Below, one piece after another: positions 4,256-27,633 of a stretch of 64,000 nucleotides of DNA. Under the pieces are notes generated by a model. The model was given only the letters and a program-made list of their open reading frames with translations. It did no database searches and was not told where the DNA came from. Origin of the DNA: a phage; the NCBI GenBank assembly GCA_023802575.1, contig GCA_023802575.1_3947.1. The stretch is one strand, 5' to 3'. Numbering within the stretch: the stretch's first letter is position 1; every line of letters starts with the position of its first letter. Position numbers and translations under genes: made by a program.

Positions 4256-12274
<8,019 letters not shown>

Positions 12275-12275
<1 letters not shown>

Positions 12276-12514
12276 TACATTTTTCCTGCTCTTCTAAGTT
12301 CGTTGTAAGCAATTTCCTCTTTATACGACCTCTGAATTTCAAGAAATTGTCTCAATGATAATAAATCAGAGAATGTCATAGCAAAGAGTTGGTCAAGTGT
12401 TTCTTTACACCCTTCCATACCATAAATAGCAAGCACAAATTTCATCTCGTCTGCTTCTTCATAGGTTGCCTCTACAGCAGCATCAGTTAGTGGTGTCTGT
12501 AGAGTGTTACCCAT
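12275..12514 (-). CDS. Tail assembly chaperone, downstream (-1) frame segment (gpT-like)
   Basis: 79 aa ORF starting 2 nt after the stop of 12517..12915, in the -1 frame relative to it. Confidence 0.45.
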
Positions 12515-12516
12515 GT

Positions 12517-12915
12517 TTACTGAGAAGTTAGGCTTTTGAAAATGCTTGCTTCGAAAAAACTTCCGAAATTTGCCTCCAGCGCAAATGCTAAGTAATCAAT
12601 AAACTCACCGTAGTTTGCTTGGAAGTACGTATCAATATTAAGTGGGAAGTCGTCAACAGTTGCCCCTTGAAATAATAAGGTAGCCATCTCTTCAAGGTTA
12701 ATTTCTTCAATTCTGTCAAAACAAGCTTCAACAAGTTCTTTAAATGGAACCATTGGAGCTTCTTTCTTACCCTTGTCAGTCAGACTTGACAGCATCTGTG
12801 CAAAGGTTGGAACAACAATTTTACCCAACTTCATAGACATCTTAATACCATCTCTTGCCCCAAGCAGAACGATATTTACTTTCTTACCATTAATTACTCT
12901 AGATTCTGTTTTCAT
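12517..12915 (-). CDS. Tail assembly chaperone (gpG-like)
   Basis: 132 aa, between tube and tape measure; contains T-TTT-TTC heptamer near its 3' end. Confidence 0.5.
   Translation of the reverse strand: MKTESRVINGKKVNIVLLGARDGIKMSMKLGKIVVPTFAQMLSSLTDKGKKEAPMVPFKELVEACFDRIEEINLEEMATLLFQGATVDDFPLNIDTYFQANYGEFIDYLAFALEANFGSFFEASIFKSLTSQ
12553..12559 (-). other. Candidate -1 programmed ribosomal frameshift slippery heptamer T_TTT_TTC
   Basis: Minus-strand TTTTTTC in X_XXY_YYZ register of the 132-aa frame (codons AGT TTT TTC); a -1 shift reads without stop into the ATG frame of 12275..12514. Confidence 0.4.
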
Positions 12916-12943
12916 TGTGATTCCTTAATACTTTAAAAGAAAC

Positions 12944-12977
12944 AAAAAAGGGGAAGACCTTTTAAAGTCTCCCCCTT
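12944..12977 (-). terminator. Rho-independent terminator downstream of tail tube gene
   Basis: Hairpin GGGGGAGAC-loop-GTCTTCCCC followed by T6 on minus strand. Confidence 0.6.
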
Positions 12978-12987
12978 ATAGGATTTA

Positions 12988-13434
12988 TTAAACACTTGAC
13001 GCTGGAATTGTTGAAGTGTAGTCTAGCTTCTCACAACCAAAAATCCAAGTTTTAGAGTTCTGGTCACGACCAAGTTCAATCTGTGGTAATTCCTGCAACC
13101 AAGCATTAATACCAGTTGCCAGAACAGAGCCTGATGGGTCGTAGATTACGAAGTTAGAAGAGATATCTTCTTCAAGTTCCATATTGTCTTGTTTAGCTTG
13201 AATTGCAGAAAGCATCTGGTTAGAGAGAGAAGTCTGCATTAACTCAATCTCAATAGTACCTGTCTTGTCTGCATTTCTTGTCAGAGCAACTTGACCACCT
13301 GCACCTACAACTGGTGTGATAAGTGGTGATGTTCTCTGTAGACGTAAAAATGAGTCTGGGGCAAAGCCTTCAATGGCAATACCATTCCAGCTACATACAA
13401 CGTCTTTAGGGGAATATTGCTGATACATAGCCAT
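12988..13434 (-). CDS. Tail tube protein
   Basis: 148 aa ORF immediately downstream of the sheath-sized gene and followed by terminator (highly expressed pair). Confidence 0.55.
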   Translation of the reverse strand: MAMYQQYSPKDVVCSWNGIAIEGFAPDSFLRLQRTSPLITPVVGAGGQVALTRNADKTGTIEIELMQTSLSNQMLSAIQAKQDNMELEEDISSNFVIYDPSGSVLATGINAWLQELPQIELGRDQNSKTWIFGCEKLDYTSTIPASSV

Positions 13435-13449
13435 TCCAATTTACCTCTA

Positions 13450-14802
13450 TTATTCGTAAGCCACTGTACCTTTCAAGTCAACATCCAAGATAGCCCCTGC
13501 TAAGATACCTGCGAAGGTAACGTCTTTCAGGATACGAGCTTTCTTGTCTGCCAAAGCAACTTGAGAGGCTTTAGGAACATTAACTGTGTAAGATGACAGG
13601 AAGTTTCTGTTGACTGCTCTTTGCAGAGAGGTTTCAATGACTTGACGAATACGGGTAATGCCAGTATCATCATAAGTAATCTTACCACCCTTCTGGTTAA
13701 TTAGCAAGTCTCTCAGAGAAGTTTTCAGGTCTGATTCTAACCAGTCAACACCACGGACGATATCAATCCATTCCCCACCAGAAGTAATCCCTCTACGAAC
13801 CACTGGAACACCACCATCAAGGTCGATAAAGTTACAGTGACGTGCATCTAAAGCTGACTTCTGAATGCTTGTCAGAGGTCTCTTATTAGCTGGCTGTAAA
13901 GAAGCAGCTACACCAGTCAACTGAGCATTACCCCAAGCAATTGACCCTGCATCGTATGGAGCACCATAAGCAATATATGCCATCTCTGGATAATCTTCTG
14001 CCGCTGTGTGATGCCACAAGCAAACTGTGCGGGTATACATACTCTTAGCAAGCTGCGCTGGAACATCATTTGCACTGTTTAATTCTGTACCTTGTAGTGC
14101 TGCTACATCAGAGTTGGCTGTGAAGAAGATTTTCTTACGAGCCTGAATCTCAGAAGCCATTGCTAAGACAAACTGTTGAGTTCTGTCTTCTGCTGCAATG
14201 AAATACCAGTCGGTAGAATAAGCTTCAATAGCTGCCAGAGCAGTTGACGCTGTATCAGCAGTTGTGCTTGCAACAGATACAGTTTGTGCTGTAGTGGTTA
14301 CCTTCACGAAATCATTGTCACCAGCTTTGGAGATGACCATTGTGGCAGAACCGTTGCTACCAGTAACATTGACTGATACTTTATCTTTAATTGATTGGTC
14401 AGCTTCAATCTGTGTTTTAAACTGTTGTAATACCTTCTCGGCAGTATCTTCAGATTGAGAAGTGTACTGGAATGGTTGTGACATTCCTCCACCGACAGCT
14501 ACAGTAATTGAGTAGTCCGTGCTCTCAGTAACCTCATCAGGAATTGATACAGTGTACTGCATAGCGCGTCTACCAATATAAAGCTGAGTTACTTTAGGAG
14601 TCTGACTCCAAAGTTGTTTAGCAGCCTTATATGCAGCAGTATTCTCATCGAAATCTTCAGCAACTTCAGTTAAGGAAGTGTAACCACGCACTCTTTCTTC
14701 AAAGTTATCTGTTGAAGCTAAGAATAGTGGCAAACCAAAACCTTCTCTTGTAGTTCCTGCGGTGTTCAATGTAATATCTACATTAACAATTGGATTCCAC
14801 AT
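13450..14802 (-). CDS. Tail sheath protein
   Basis: 450 aa; position upstream of tube in a contractile-tail module. Confidence 0.55.
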   Translation of the reverse strand: MWNPIVNVDITLNTAGTTREGFGLPLFLASTDNFEERVRGYTSLTEVAEDFDENTAAYKAAKQLWSQTPKVTQLYIGRRAMQYTVSIPDEVTESTDYSITVAVGGGMSQPFQYTSQSEDTAEKVLQQFKTQIEADQSIKDKVSVNVTGSNGSATMVISKAGDNDFVKVTTTAQTVSVASTTADTASTALAAIEAYSTDWYFIAAEDRTQQFVLAMASEIQARKKIFFTANSDVAALQGTELNSANDVPAQLAKSMYTRTVCLWHHTAAEDYPEMAYIAYGAPYDAGSIAWGNAQLTGVAASLQPANKRPLTSIQKSALDARHCNFIDLDGGVPVVRRGITSGGEWIDIVRGVDWLESDLKTSLRDLLINQKGGKITYDDTGITRIRQVIETSLQRAVNRNFLSSYTVNVPKASQVALADKKARILKDVTFAGILAGAILDVDLKGTVAYE

Positions 14803-23974: not shown

Positions 23975-24050
23975 TGGAGAATCCGAAGGGACTCGAACCC
24001 TTATAAACCTGTTTTGCAGACAGGCACATAGCCATTTCTGTCACGGATTC
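23975..24050 (-). tRNA. tRNA-Cys (GCA)
   Basis: Minus-strand cloverleaf read by eye: encoded CCA (TGG on plus), T-loop TTCGAGT, anticodon loop CTGCAAA. Confidence 0.65.
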
Positions 24051-24054
24051 AAAT

Positions 24055-24147
24055 TGGAGGAAGATACCAGACTTGAACTGGTACACCGATTTCTCAGCTA
24101 CTGGCAGTTTAGCAAACTGCTCCCTTACCTTTTAGGGTTAATCTTCC
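24055..24147 (-). tRNA. tRNA-Ser (GCT), class II
   Basis: Perfect anticodon stem GCAGT/ACTGC with loop TTGCTAA; long variable arm; T-loop TTCAAGT; CCA encoded. Confidence 0.6.
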
Positions 24148-24148
24148 G

Positions 24149-24883
24149 TTATTTCCGTAATGCGTTCTTCATTTCTGGTGTTGCAATAGTATCAATTACA
24201 CCAGTTTTACAAGAATCATCAAACCAGTCTGGTAAGATACCTGCTAAGAACCCATTGATATTCGTTTTAAGGTACTCTGCAATAAGAGCAGCTTCTTCTT
24301 CAATCATCTGCACAACTTCATCTGCATAAGCTGTAATCTTCGAAATACCTTCATTAATCTTACTAACAGCTTGGTTAGCTAAATCAGAAATAGTATCAAG
24401 ACCTTTGTCAATAGCGTCTTGTAAGTCACTTAATACATCATTAACACCGTCTAGTGCACTGTTAATCGTATCAATAGCTTTTTGACCATACTCTGTAGCA
24501 ACACCCATAATACCACTAAATGGTGTACAACCGACTTGTTCACCTGCTGCACCCATAACATTAGAATAACCTTTTGCTACCTGCATACGTGATGAAAACT
24601 CATCAATGGACTTTTGACCGTAATCCGTCAGCGTTTTGGTAGTTGATGTAGTGCTTGTCAGACTCGTTGTAAAGCTGTTAAGCAGAACTGTTGTAAGTCC
24701 AGCAGCAACAAGTTTATCTTTTATTGTAGGGTCTGTTACAGAGCTAATAGAGCTTACAAGTGATGTAGAGGCAGCTACGGTTCCACCGAGAACTGCTGCA
24801 CCAGTAATAAGGGGATTAGAGAACCCTTTACCAGTTTTTAAGAGATTAAAAATCTCCTTACCTTGTTCTGTCATCTCTTTCAT
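24149..24883 (-). CDS. Hypothetical protein embedded in tRNA array
   Basis: About 244 aa from ATG at 24883 (MKEMTEQGK), with AAAGGTG upstream; the longer start in the ORF track overlaps tRNA-Phe. Confidence 0.5.
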   Translation of the reverse strand: MKEMTEQGKEIFNLLKTGKGFSNPLITGAAVLGGTVAASTSLVSSISSVTDPTIKDKLVAAGLTTVLLNSFTTSLTSTTSTTKTLTDYGQKSIDEFSSRMQVAKGYSNVMGAAGEQVGCTPFSGIMGVATEYGQKAIDTINSALDGVNDVLSDLQDAIDKGLDTISDLANQAVSKINEGISKITAYADEVVQMIEEEAALIAEYLKTNINGFLAGILPDWFDDSCKTGVIDTIATPEMKNALRK

Positions 24884-24899
24884 TAAGCACCTTTGAAAT

Positions 24900-24975
24900 T
24901 GGTAGTCCAGTGGGATTTGAACCCTCTTCTCATGTTTTTCAGACACGCGCTTTAACCATATAAGCTACTTGGACT
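24900..24975 (-). tRNA. tRNA-Phe (GAA)
   Basis: U8-A9, D-stem GCTT/AAGC, anticodon loop CTGAAAA, T-loop TTCAAAT, CCA encoded. Confidence 0.7.
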
Positions 24976-24981
24976 ATAAAT

Positions 24982-25056
24982 TGGGGTGACCTACGGGATT
25001 TGAACCCGTATAGACCATGTTCACAGCATGGGTCATTACCATTTATGATAAGGCCA
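24982..25056 (-). tRNA. tRNA-His (GTG)
   Basis: Anticodon stem CCATG/CATGG, loop CTGTGAA; T-loop TTCAAAT. Confidence 0.65.
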
Positions 25057-25088
25057 CATTTAAGGACTCTCGTAAGAACCCTTAGAAG

Positions 25089-25164
25089 TGGCAGCGGCAT
25101 AAGGATTTGAACCTTAATAAGACAGCTTCAGAGACTGCTGCATTACCAGTTATGCTATACCGCT
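25089..25164 (-). tRNA. tRNA-Gln (CTG)
   Basis: D-stem GCAT/ATGC, anticodon loop CTCTGAA, T-loop TTCAAAT. Confidence 0.55.
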
Positions 25165-25169
25165 AAATT

Positions 25170-25248
25170 TGGTACTCCATATCGGATTCGAACCGATACA
25201 TAACACAGATTTTAAGTCTGGCCTCTCTGCCAATTGGAGTAATGGAGC
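25170..25248 (-). tRNA. tRNA, anticodon unresolved (possibly TAA)
   Basis: Clear acceptor and T-arm (ATCGG TTCGAAT CCGAT) with CCA; anticodon arm could not be folded unambiguously by hand. Confidence 0.45.
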
Positions 25249-25250
25249 AT

Positions 25251-25326
25251 TGGCGGGGGATGTTGGAATTGAACCAACTTCTTCGATTTCAAAGACCGAG
25301 GTTTTAACCTTGTAAACTAATCCCCT
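25251..25326 (-). tRNA. tRNA-Gln (TTG)
   Basis: D-stem GTTT/AAAC, anticodon stem TCGGT/ATCGA, loop CTTTGAA; 1-72 mismatch. Confidence 0.55.
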
Positions 25327-25334
25327 TTAAATCT

Positions 25335-25892
25335 TTACTTTCTTAGTGGATGAATAAAGAATGCCAACATAACTCTTTCCCTTGAGAATGCTCTTTCTTC
25401 TGGGACAACACTTTTTAGCTTCCACCCAATATAAATTCTCCAGTAAAACTGTTTACCAAAGATTTTAATTGATGGGATAAAAGCGAATAATCCCCAAGCA
25501 TTGCTGTTCCACATTAGGAGATAACCTGTCTGATTATCTTCAGGGTTAGAACTTACGTTGATATTACCTTTCCACTTGGTAACATCTTTTACATCTCTTC
25601 CTAATACATGGTAAGAGAAGTTATAAGCTTTGTTTCTCCAGAGCCAACCGACTCTCTGCATATAGACACCAAGCTTACCAATCCATCTAATATTAGCCCA
25701 TCTCTTAACGTGACCTTCATCACCATCAATTGGGTTGTCATAAGTTTCCATCCATCTAAATCCGAAAGGTAAGTGTCCTTTCTTCTCACTGTAAAATGGA
25801 ACTACAAAAGGTGCTAAGATAACTGCTAAGATTGCTGCAAATGGTTCTAACAAAGCTAAGAAAATCCATGAAGCATACTTCAAATATCTCAT
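25335..25892 (-). CDS. Membrane protein embedded in tRNA array
   Basis: 185 aa; N-terminal hydrophobic segment WIFLALLEPFAAILAVILAPFVV; Trp-rich. Confidence 0.5.
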   Translation of the reverse strand: MRYLKYASWIFLALLEPFAAILAVILAPFVVPFYSEKKGHLPFGFRWMETYDNPIDGDEGHVKRWANIRWIGKLGVYMQRVGWLWRNKAYNFSYHVLGRDVKDVTKWKGNINVSSNPEDNQTGYLLMWNSNAWGLFAFIPSIKIFGKQFYWRIYIGWKLKSVVPEERAFSRERVMLAFFIHPLRK

Positions 25893-25911
25893 CTAAATAG
25901 CCTCTTTAAAT

Positions 25912-25987
25912 TGGCGCAGGATAAGGGATTCGAACCCCTATTAACAGCTTCGTAGACTGTTGCTCTATCCATTTGAACTAATCCTGC
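25912..25987 (-). tRNA. tRNA-Arg (ACG)
   Basis: Anticodon stem ACAGT/GCTGT, loop CTACGAA; T-loop TTCGAAT; CCA encoded. Confidence 0.7.
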
Positions 25988-25992
25988 AAAAT

Positions 25993-26070
25993 TGGTGTTC
26001 CAAGACGGATTCGAACCGTCACTAGTACAAGGTTTGAGCTTGCATCCTCTGCCAATTGGGATACTGGAAC
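25993..26070 (-). tRNA. tRNA, anticodon tentatively CAA
   Basis: Anticodon stem GCAAG/CTTGT with loop CTCAAAC; no long variable arm, so a Leu identity is unconfirmed. Confidence 0.45.
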
Positions 26071-26071
26071 A

Positions 26072-26146
26072 TGGTACTCACTAAAGGACTTGAACCTTTT
26101 TCTTCATCTTGTAAGGGTGATGTTTTACCATATAAACTAAGCGAGT
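26072..26146 (-). tRNA. tRNA-Val (TAC)
   Basis: U8-A9, D-stem GTTT/AAAC with GG in loop, anticodon loop CTTACAA, T-loop TTCAAGT. Confidence 0.65.
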
Positions 26147-26243
26147 GTGAGAAGAGGTCTGGAGTTGTGCCGCTAACTCAACTCCGTGGAATTTGTTACG
26201 GTCTTCAGTTGACTCAAAGCGGTCTTTCACTTGACCTCTGAAT

Positions 26244-26319
26244 TGGTGCTCCCACAAGGATTCGAACCCTGATAAGTTGCTTACAAGGCAACCGTAATAG
26301 CCAATTATACGATAGGAGC
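26244..26319 (-). tRNA. tRNA-Thr (TGT)
   Basis: Anticodon stem GTTGC/GCAAC, loop CTTGTAA; T-loop TTCGAAT. Confidence 0.7.
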
Positions 26320-26326
26320 ATTAATT

Positions 26327-26401
26327 TGGAGCATCCAGAGGGAATCGAACCCTCAACCTCAGTTTGGAAGACTGTAATTTTCCCGTTTAAACTATGGATG
26401 C
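26327..26401 (-). tRNA. tRNA-Gly (TCC)
   Basis: Anticodon loop CTTCCAA; T-stem GAGGG/CCCTC, loop TTCGATT. Confidence 0.65.
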
Positions 26402-26407
26402 ACTAAT

Positions 26408-26483
26408 TGGTGGAGTCACTGAGAATTGAACTCAGTTCCCAAGTTTGCAAAACTCGAATTTTAACCATATAAACTATGACCCC
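26408..26483 (-). tRNA. tRNA-Ala (TGC)
   Basis: Anticodon stem CGAGT/ACTTG, loop TTTGCAA; T-stem CTGAG/CTCAG. Confidence 0.65.
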
Positions 26484-26489
26484 ATTGTT

Positions 26490-26565
26490 TGGTACAGGTG
26501 GAGGGAATTGAACCCATCGTCTTACTGATTAAGAGTCAGCCGCATAACCATTTTGCTACACCTGC
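26490..26565 (-). tRNA. tRNA-Lys (CTT)
   Basis: Anticodon stem GCTGA/TCAGT, loop CTCTTAA; body closely similar to the TTT isoacceptor at 27789. Confidence 0.55.
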
Positions 26566-26572
26566 ATTAATT

Positions 26573-26650
26573 TGGTAGGAGACAAGGGATTCGAACCCTC
26601 AAACACCAACTTCTAAGGATGGTAGGTTTACCAATTACCGTCAATCTCCC
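26573..26650 (-). tRNA. tRNA, anticodon tentatively TAG
   Basis: T-arm GAGGG TTCGAAT CCCTT and acceptor clear; anticodon arm fold ambiguous, candidate loop CTTAGAA. Confidence 0.4.
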
Positions 26651-26904
26651 ATTAAATCTTTTTAGAGAACTTCTAAGAACCTAAGCAACAAGGTTCCACA
26701 ACAAGCGACTAATAACCTTAGAAGCCCTCTAAAAAGACCTAAATAGGTCTTTGCATAGTCTTGTTTAATCCGGTGACTAGAACCTTTGGAGAGCTTGATA
26801 TTATCTCTTCTCCGTGACACCTACTAGGTGCTTTGACAGTGTACGACAATACACGAGGGATAAACCGACAATGCGAACAAGCATGGACGGAGTAAATCTT
26901 ATTA

Positions 26905-26994
26905 GGCGGTAAGTAAAGGAGTCGAACCCTCACCGTATCTCTACAGTGGCAACAGTTTTCAAGACTGTTTGGCTGCCATTAGCCGCTACCTACC
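26905..26994 (-). tRNA. tRNA-Ser (TGA), class II
   Basis: Perfect anticodon stem ACAGT/ACTGT with loop CTTGAAA; long variable arm; terminal CC encoded without A. Confidence 0.6.
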
Positions 26995-27007
26995 CCTAAT
27001 AAGATTT

Positions 27008-27090
27008 TGGCATGGGACGGAGGAGTTGAACCCCTTTGAAACGGTTTTGGAGGCCGTTGCTCATGCCTTAGAGTCTTAACATCGTCCCAT
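27008..27090 (-). tRNA. tRNA-Trp (CCA), atypical length
   Basis: Perfect 7-bp acceptor ATGGGAC/GTCCCAT, anticodon loop CTCCAAA; about 83 nt with enlarged D region. Confidence 0.5.
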
Positions 27091-27233
27091 ATTATAATTC
27101 GAAGCTTACCCTGTTATCTCAACACTGTCAAGCTTCTTCTCAGATTATTTACATGTTCTGGAAAACATGAGATACAGACCACCTCCCTACAGGAAGACCC
27201 ACTAAGGCCGTCTAAGTAATCTGCTAACTATTT

Positions 27234-27310
27234 GGTACACCCTACAGGATTCGAACCTGTAACTAACGATTTAGAAGACCGTTGCTCTATCCAATTGAAC
27301 TAAGGGTGCA
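27234..27310 (-). tRNA. tRNA-Arg (TCT)
   Basis: Anticodon stem ACGGT/ATCGT, loop CTTCTAA; D-arm GTTC AATTGGATA GAGC. Confidence 0.7.
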
Positions 27311-27555
27311 TTATCTTTAAAGACTCTCTTAGAAAGCCCTTAAAGATGCCCACCTTATTAATCATACCGTGGGCGAGTACGCCAAATTCTTTGATGAGGG
27401 ATTGGAAGACCTCACTGGTGTTTAGCCTATCAAGCTACTGCCAGAAAAACATTGTCGTTTGCATTTATTTTAAATTTGCAAAATAGACGCTACGCAACGA
27501 AAACTAAGGTTACTATAAAGTAGTCACATCTCAATGTCAACAACTTTATTGAAAT

Positions 27556-27631
27556 TGGTACTGGTAGGTGGAATCGAACCACCGATGTTCCCTTATCAGG
27601 GGAGTGTTATAACCTTCTTAACTATACCAGC
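27556..27631 (-). tRNA. tRNA-Ile (GAT)
   Basis: Anticodon loop CTGATAA; T-loop TTCGATT; CCA encoded. Confidence 0.65.
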
Positions 27632-27633
27632 AT

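Follow-up and report, generated by a model that had tools for sequence, protein, structure and literature searches.

Phage tail assembly chaperone pairs made by −1 frameshifting were reportedly recognized as a class by Xu, Hendrix and Duda in 2004. Phage lambda has a non-contractile tail and carries the heptamer G_GGA_AAG. Its chaperones gpG and gpGT are made from one start, by a −1 slip that occurs at low frequency close to the 3′ end of the gene; the shared N-terminal domain binds the tape measure protein, the −1 encoded domain binds the tail tube protein, and neither chaperone is present in the virion (PMC5009743). The E/E+E′ pair of P2 involves a −1 shift at TTTTTTG, located toward the end of its short gene, with no downstream hairpin (PMC3091744, citing Christie 2002 and Xu 2004). 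Among the sequences most prone to shifting in Escherichia coli are UUN codons in the A site and all-pyrimidine heptamers; U_UU.C ranks second among the tetramers, and U_UU.U_UU.C, which is under-represented in genes, yields >0.1% shifting without stimulators (PMC4066793). An upstream Shine-Dalgarno–like sequence boosts shifting to the −1 frame in dnaX and, by one estimate, in 56% of insertion sequence (IS) elements (PMC5009743); such elements have been searched for 6 to 17 nt upstream of heptamers (PMC4066793).

The described systems closest to the locus considered here are those of the Felix O1–like phages Mushroom, Moogle, Mordin, Michonne, and Mijalis, which have the same genes, the heptamer T_TTT_TTC, and an FF/R junction. 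The genome announcements of Moogle and Mijalis mention the frameshift (PMC4319497, PMC5543628), and a 2025 paper reports a GTTTTT motif that is invariant across 231 Andersonviridae phages (PMC12846349). The phage considered here very probably makes a long chaperone form by such a −1 slip; the feature is well conserved but ordinary, and is already annotated and published for close relatives. Biological understanding is little altered by it, this being the standard way for long-tailed phages to set the ratio of two chaperones.

Gene order and protein families at the chaperone locus

The window, i.e., the whole 64,000-nucleotide stretch of phage DNA that was analyzed, is 96 to 98% identical to Felix O1–like myophages such as VpaE1, ULIM3, and SUT_S720 over the 5 kb around the chaperone locus, where 298 phage records match. 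The taxonomy is Felixounavirus, subfamily Ounavirinae, family Andersonviridae. The genes of the locus, in minus-strand order, are as follows:

14802..13450, minus strand: tail sheath gene (ORF list)
12988..13434, minus strand: tail tube gene, 148 aa, directly upstream of the chaperone gene (Pfam KPP10_Orf10; phrog_280)
12517..12915, minus strand: short tail assembly chaperone gene (TAC-N; equivalent of lambda gpG and P2 gpE), 132 aa, zero frame (Pfam, PHROG)
12514..12275, minus strand: 79-aa “T-like” ORF, −1 frame (phrog_4963)
10044..12275, minus strand: tape measure protein gene, 743 aa (Pfam TMP_3; phrog_4036)

Both small ORFs lie between the tube and tape measure genes, which is the location characteristic of the class. 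P2, like this phage, has a contractile tail and the order sheath, tube, chaperone, tape measure. The relatives of the tail tube gene are labeled as virion structural protein.

The 132-aa protein matches the Pfam family PF21822 Phage_TAC_15 (E = 1.7e-19, 71 bits against a cutoff of 22), unlike the chaperone of lambda, and in PHROGs it matches the tail assembly chaperone family phrog_1613 (E = 2.9e-48) and also phrog_3840. The 79-aa part matches another tail assembly chaperone family, phrog_4963 (E = 2.8e-55); it matched no Pfam family, the lambda T family included. No solved structure in the PDB is related by sequence to the fusion of the two parts. Both proteins are identical to those of Felix O1, ORF158 (AAQ14792.1) and ORF159, which the Felix O1 record leaves unjoined. 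The arrangement of the locus and the family membership of the short protein are direct observations. A preliminary description of this DNA had likened the arrangement to lambda G/GT, and this comparison is supported by the gene order, by the Phage_TAC_15 and PHROG matches, and by a heptamer conserved in all relatives examined (see below).

The candidate slip site and the predicted 213-aa fusion

The following elements define the candidate frameshift site:

12553..12559, minus strand: slippery heptamer T_TTT_TTC in X_XXY_YYZ register, codons AGT TTT TTC for S119, F120, and F121 (read from the sequence)
12520..12595, minus strand: 76-nt overlap in which the zero and −1 frames are both open and in which a slip would have to fall (frame analysis)
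12275..12553, minus strand: predicted −1 extension, RSKHFQKPNFSVN followed by the 79-aa ORF, with C12553 re-read as the first base of CGA (frame analysis)

The 3′ end of the short gene reads GCG CTG GAG GCA AAT TTC GGA AGT TTT TTC GAA GCA AGC ATT and continues TTC AAA AGC CTA ACT TCT CAG TAA AC ATG GGT. The heptamer is separated from the zero-frame TAA (12519..12517) by 33 nt, and the distance from its first T to the stop is 40 nt, in agreement with the earlier claim of an in-register T_TTT_TTC about 40 nt before the stop of the 132-aa ORF. The −1 frame opens at 12595 and meets its first stop at 12277..12275, a run of 106 codons ending at the start of the tape measure gene, so that a −1 slip would indeed enter the frame of the 79-aa ORF without meeting a stop, as had been proposed. 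The fusion coding sequence, join(12915..12553, 12553..12275), would give a product of 213 aa, close to the “about 200 aa” of the preliminary description. It would consist of residues 1 to 121 of the short chaperone (ending GSFF), the linker RSKHFQKPNFSVN, and the 79 residues that begin MGNTLQ. Compared to the fusion of Mushroom, it differs at two residues (S5F and G49D).

The seventh base of the heptamer is G in P2, whereas it is C here; the products are of 91 and 142 aa there and of 132 and 213 aa here; and the P2 shift was proven by experiment, whereas the fusion described here is predicted from sequence.

To judge how readily such a site arises, in-register X_XXY_YYZ heptamers were counted in those 65 ORFs of the window that are 100 aa or longer. 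There are 55 in 16,050 codon positions (0.0034 per codon), giving a chance expectation of ~0.09 canonical heptamers in the 25-codon overlap. T_TTT_TTN occurs in register a single time in these 16,050 codons, at the chaperone site. The occurrence of the heptamer in a single genome is only suggestive; its conservation in relatives lifts the site beyond chance.

A second heptamer, A_AAT_TTC (12571..12565, minus strand), also lies in register within the overlap, 12 nt upstream, yet it is poorly kept and was rejected as a conserved functional site. In the closest cluster, which has 36 members, it occurs only in this window and in one other locus (L027); most members have AAC TTC. A few metagenomic loci among the distant relatives (L065, L075, and L077-L081) have an equivalent A_AAT_TTY 12 nt before the T6 site. 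A slip at A_AAT_TTC would likewise give a 213-aa fusion, with two of the four junction residues changed (RKFF for GSFF). The +1 frame was discarded as well: Beyond the stop it is open for only 3 to 42 codons, and it lacks conservation.

Conservation of the heptamer among relatives

We assembled 86 related loci: 14 annotated relatives and 72 IMG/VR contigs found with the chaperone alignment. The annotated relatives were Felix O1, Mushroom, Moogle, Mordin, Sf17, SUSP1, SUSP2, Hafnia phage SarahDanielle, Erwinia phages Ep030 and Pistou, Salmonella phage PMBT37, Alteromonas phage PT11-V22, Pectobacterium phage phiTE, and the rV5-like FV3. Clustering at 60% identity reduced the 86 loci to 21 clusters, with protein identity to the query reaching down to ~23%.

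T_TTT_TTN is found in register within the overlap of the zero and −1 frames in all 86 analyzable loci, and hence in 21 of 21 clusters; the 72 IMG/VR loci were retrieved with a peptide pattern over residues 111 to 120, which makes the Ser/Cys-Phe part of this agreement partly ascertained, while the synonymous choices and F121 are free of that effect. In all 85 related loci examined, no stop interrupts the −1 frame until shortly before the tape measure gene. Past the zero-frame stop, this frame extends for 70 to 89 aa in the annotated relatives and for 37 to 91 aa in those 69 IMG/VR loci in which it ends within the contig.

F120 and F121 are invariant in the chaperone protein alignment. The codon that precedes the Phe pair is AGT, TCT, or TGT, ending in T in 21 of 21 clusters, and F120 is encoded by TTT in every cluster; at the nearby F117, TTC predominates. 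Across clusters, the heptamer ends in C, T, A, or G, with A or G turning Phe into Leu. Because the synonymous positions are fixed and the last base is free, the alignment shows strong selection on the slippery heptamer itself rather than on the protein.

The heptamer is part of a longer conserved element:

12534..12562, minus strand: 29-nt block AAGTTTTTTCGAAGCAAGCATTTTCAAAA, covering the heptamer and 19 nt past it; no other stretch of the locus is as well conserved (alignment)

This block is the longest identical run in comparison with the Erwinia and Hafnia phages, whose nucleotide identity over the whole locus is 56 to 59%. Dual coding in both frames may account for its conservation, and it is also conceivable that the 19 nt past the heptamer could act as a second, sequence-specific element rather than being a by-product of dual coding.

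Probable frameshifting and alternative explanations

With high confidence, we interpret the locus as a programmed −1 ribosomal frameshift that yields two tail assembly chaperones from one start codon. The majority of ribosomes would reach the TAA of the 132-aa gene and release the short chaperone. In a minority, the slip would occur while UUU in the P site and UUC in the A site are each paired with tRNA-Phe: The two tRNAs would move back by one base onto U_UUU_UU and re-pair, CGA would be read next, and −1 reading would continue through the 79-aa ORF to give the 213-aa long form. The upstream GGAGG may aid the slip, with no conserved downstream hairpin taking part. We infer the occurrence of the slip, its frequency, and the roles of both proteins. 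The logic is shared with lambda, from which the roles of the two chaperones are taken. If the two products act as do lambda gpG/gpGT and P2 gpE/gpE+E′, the tape measure protein would be coated by their common N-terminal domain, and the tail tube protein would be recruited by the C-terminal domain encoded in the −1 frame; the slip frequency would set the short-to-long ratio, and neither protein would be part of the virion.

If the 132-aa and 79-aa ORFs were instead two separate genes, the latter could be made from its own ATG by termination-reinitiation, and no fusion would be needed. This ATG (12514) lies 2 nt past the zero-frame stop (TAA AC ATG), the corresponding distance is 2 to 8 nt in Mooglevirus and Suspvirus, and most database records give separate coding sequences, all of which would suit such a scheme. 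However, there is no Shine-Dalgarno sequence ahead of the ATG (CCTAACTTCTCAGTAAACATG), and the start is not conserved in distant relatives. In 38 distinct sequence contexts that were checked, a start near the zero-frame stop is mostly absent outside Felixounavirus, Mooglevirus, and Suspvirus. In the Hafnia, Erwinia, Alteromonas, and phiTE phages and in many metagenomic relatives, the first possible start is located 38 to 125 nt past the zero-frame stop; in the Hafnia and Erwinia phages, it falls inside or past the conserved CPxT..AV motif, and in the record of Erwinia phage Pistou no gene is called at the downstream ORF. Judging from these sequences, the C-terminal domain is, across the family, reachable only via a change of frame. 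Two separate genes would also leave unexplained the invariant in-register heptamer and the unbroken −1 frame upstream of the ATG. We therefore consider this scheme very unlikely as a full explanation, and re-initiation at the 79-aa ATG could occur in Felixounavirus alongside the frameshift.

Transcriptional slippage, in which RNA polymerase adds one U at the T6 run, would lead to the same 213-aa protein. The site is homopolymeric, with a T7 run in 6 of the 21 clusters, and the protein products would be identical, such that protein sequence cannot separate the two mechanisms. What distinguishes them is the run length and the pattern of conservation. The run is just 6 nt long, while known bacterial cases involve ~9 A or T (PMC5009743). 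Conservation is specific to the register: The preceding wobble T is fixed in 21 of 21 clusters, and the seventh base is T in only 6. Selection on run length would be equally satisfied by NNN TTT TTT, yet this form never occurs without the preceding T. Since the run is short and the conservation register-specific, transcriptional slippage is disfavored, and we assign it very little probability.

A chance T run near the end of a gene in an AT-rich genome (39% GC, with the expectation of ~0.09 heptamers in the overlap given above), adjoined by a small −1 ORF, is refuted by the conservation data, as the only in-register T6N in 16,050 codons is kept in 21 of 21 diverged clusters with its synonymous choices fixed and lies within the longest identical run shared with phages that are 56 to 59% identical overall.

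Candidate stimulators of the slip

In the preliminary description, a search for a downstream stimulatory structure was proposed; single-sequence folds, a consensus fold of nine relatives, and Rfam revealed none that is conserved. The 63 nt downstream of the heptamer fold with −3.4 kcal/mol (z = +1.15), which is worse than shuffled sequences, and neither a stem-loop nor a pseudoknot was found 5 to 9 nt past the heptamer, where dnaX- and IS-type signals carry their 3′ structure. When 113 nt downstream were folded, z was −1.83, with a hairpin starting ~38 nt downstream; Mordin lacks this hairpin. The consensus fold of nine relatives, at −2.2 kcal/mol overall, contained only a weak upstream helix and a distant downstream helix of 4 bp, and the Rfam search returned three chance-level matches, far below gathering scores. 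The strong 3′ stem-loop of dnaX, its A_AAA_AAG heptamer, and its ~50% shifting do not apply here.

Upstream of the heptamer, one element was noted:

12573..12577, minus strand: Shine-Dalgarno–like GGAGG (CTG GAG G), candidate 5′ stimulator, 13 nt to the heptamer (putative role, from codon bias)

GGAGG here includes the Glu codon GAG and the G that follows it. GAG followed by G is present at the same Glu codon, with the same 13-nt spacing, in 15 of the 19 clusters that bear this Glu (15 of all 21), and AGGG is present in two more. Elsewhere in the same genes, Glu is encoded by GAG in 42% of cases, and in 26% when the next base is G. Taking one representative per cluster and treating clusters as independent, the enrichment has a binomial P of 1.4e-3 against the 42% and 1.7e-6 against the 26%. 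The GAGG element overlaps a conserved Leu-Glu-Ala/Val motif, and it is absent in four clusters; the Hafnia, Kolesnikvirus, and Certrevirus clades and one metagenomic lineage lack it. GGAGG was rejected as the ribosome-binding site of an internal start, there being no ATG, GTG, or TTG at a usable distance in the −1 frame.

As in dnaX, where a Shine-Dalgarno–like element lies upstream of the heptamer, GGAGG may be a stimulator of the slip, a hypothesis that here draws on the codon bias. In the Phage_TAC_15 family, i.e., in Ounavirinae, Vequintavirinae, and their metagenomic relatives, the GAGG spacing may be held by synonymous choice, and clades without GAGG may, on the dnaX-like reading, have lost it. 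It is a tentative proposal, which we regard as possible rather than probable, that throughout this family an internal Shine-Dalgarno sequence replaces the downstream structure, with the 19-nt element and phage tRNAs as further possible factors. The conserved upstream Shine-Dalgarno–like element is the one detail of the locus that may be new. Proof that such an element stimulates the slip in a phage tail chaperone gene would modestly extend current knowledge of frameshift signals.

The window also carries 26 phage tRNA genes in a cluster at 23975..28986 on the minus strand. Genes for tRNA-Phe(GAA) and tRNA-Arg(ACG) are found at 24900..24975 and 25912..25987 (minus strand). The former tRNA reads both slip codons and the latter reads CGA, the first −1 codon; the two could tune the ratio of short to long chaperone.

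Existing records and annotation

A joined “tape measure chaperone” coding sequence is present in GenBank for Salmonella phage Mushroom and Citrobacter phages Moogle and Mordin. The FF/R-junction fusions that we rebuilt match the deposited proteins AJF40599.1/YP_009600435.1 (Mushroom), AIW03804.1/YP_009145710.1 (Moogle), and ALA06885.1 (Mordin) exactly. The phages with deposited fusions are ~80 to 98% identical in nucleotide sequence at the locus (Mushroom 98%, Mordin about 81%). Among the 13 annotated relatives whose records were inspected, the ORFs are joined in these three, all Center for Phage Technology records, and are kept split in Felix O1 and the other RefSeq entries inspected. The 213-aa fusion of the window had no exact match in the protein collection searched. 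In the literature searched, we found no published experiment (fusion peptide, reporter, or mutant) for Ounavirinae or Vequintavirinae phages. In the cryo-EM paper on the virion of the Felixounavirus Bas63, the word “chaperone” is confined to the reference list, which would agree with both products being missing from the mature virion; the main text on gene essentiality in Bas63 contains no reference to the chaperone either. The practical value of the present analysis is one of annotation: The joined 213-aa product should be annotated.

In records of near-identical phages (LR597658.1 and OQ871557.1), gene names are displaced by several genes or wrong and should not be propagated. LR597658.1, for example, names the chaperone “Hc1 head closure protein,” the 79-aa ORF “Tc1 tail completion protein,” and the tape measure protein “Tail sheath protein.” A 132-aa chaperone of the Phage_TAC_15 family is also deposited under Staphylococcus hyicus (WP_252560994.1), from contigs of up to 47.6 kb. 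This record probably represents phage contamination of the assembly rather than a real host.

Two further features flank the chaperone genes. The ATG of the tape measure gene shares one base with the TAA of the −1 frame (TAATG, 12275, minus strand), an overlap that suggests coupling of tape measure translation to frameshifted or re-initiating ribosomes. In the interval that separates the tail tube gene from the chaperone gene, a strong hairpin resembling an intrinsic terminator is located at 12938..12977 (minus strand), with a 13-bp stem containing six GC pairs followed by TTTTGTTTCT; the Mordin record annotates a terminator at this place too. Such a hairpin would leave the chaperone and tape measure genes less transcribed than the sheath and tube genes.
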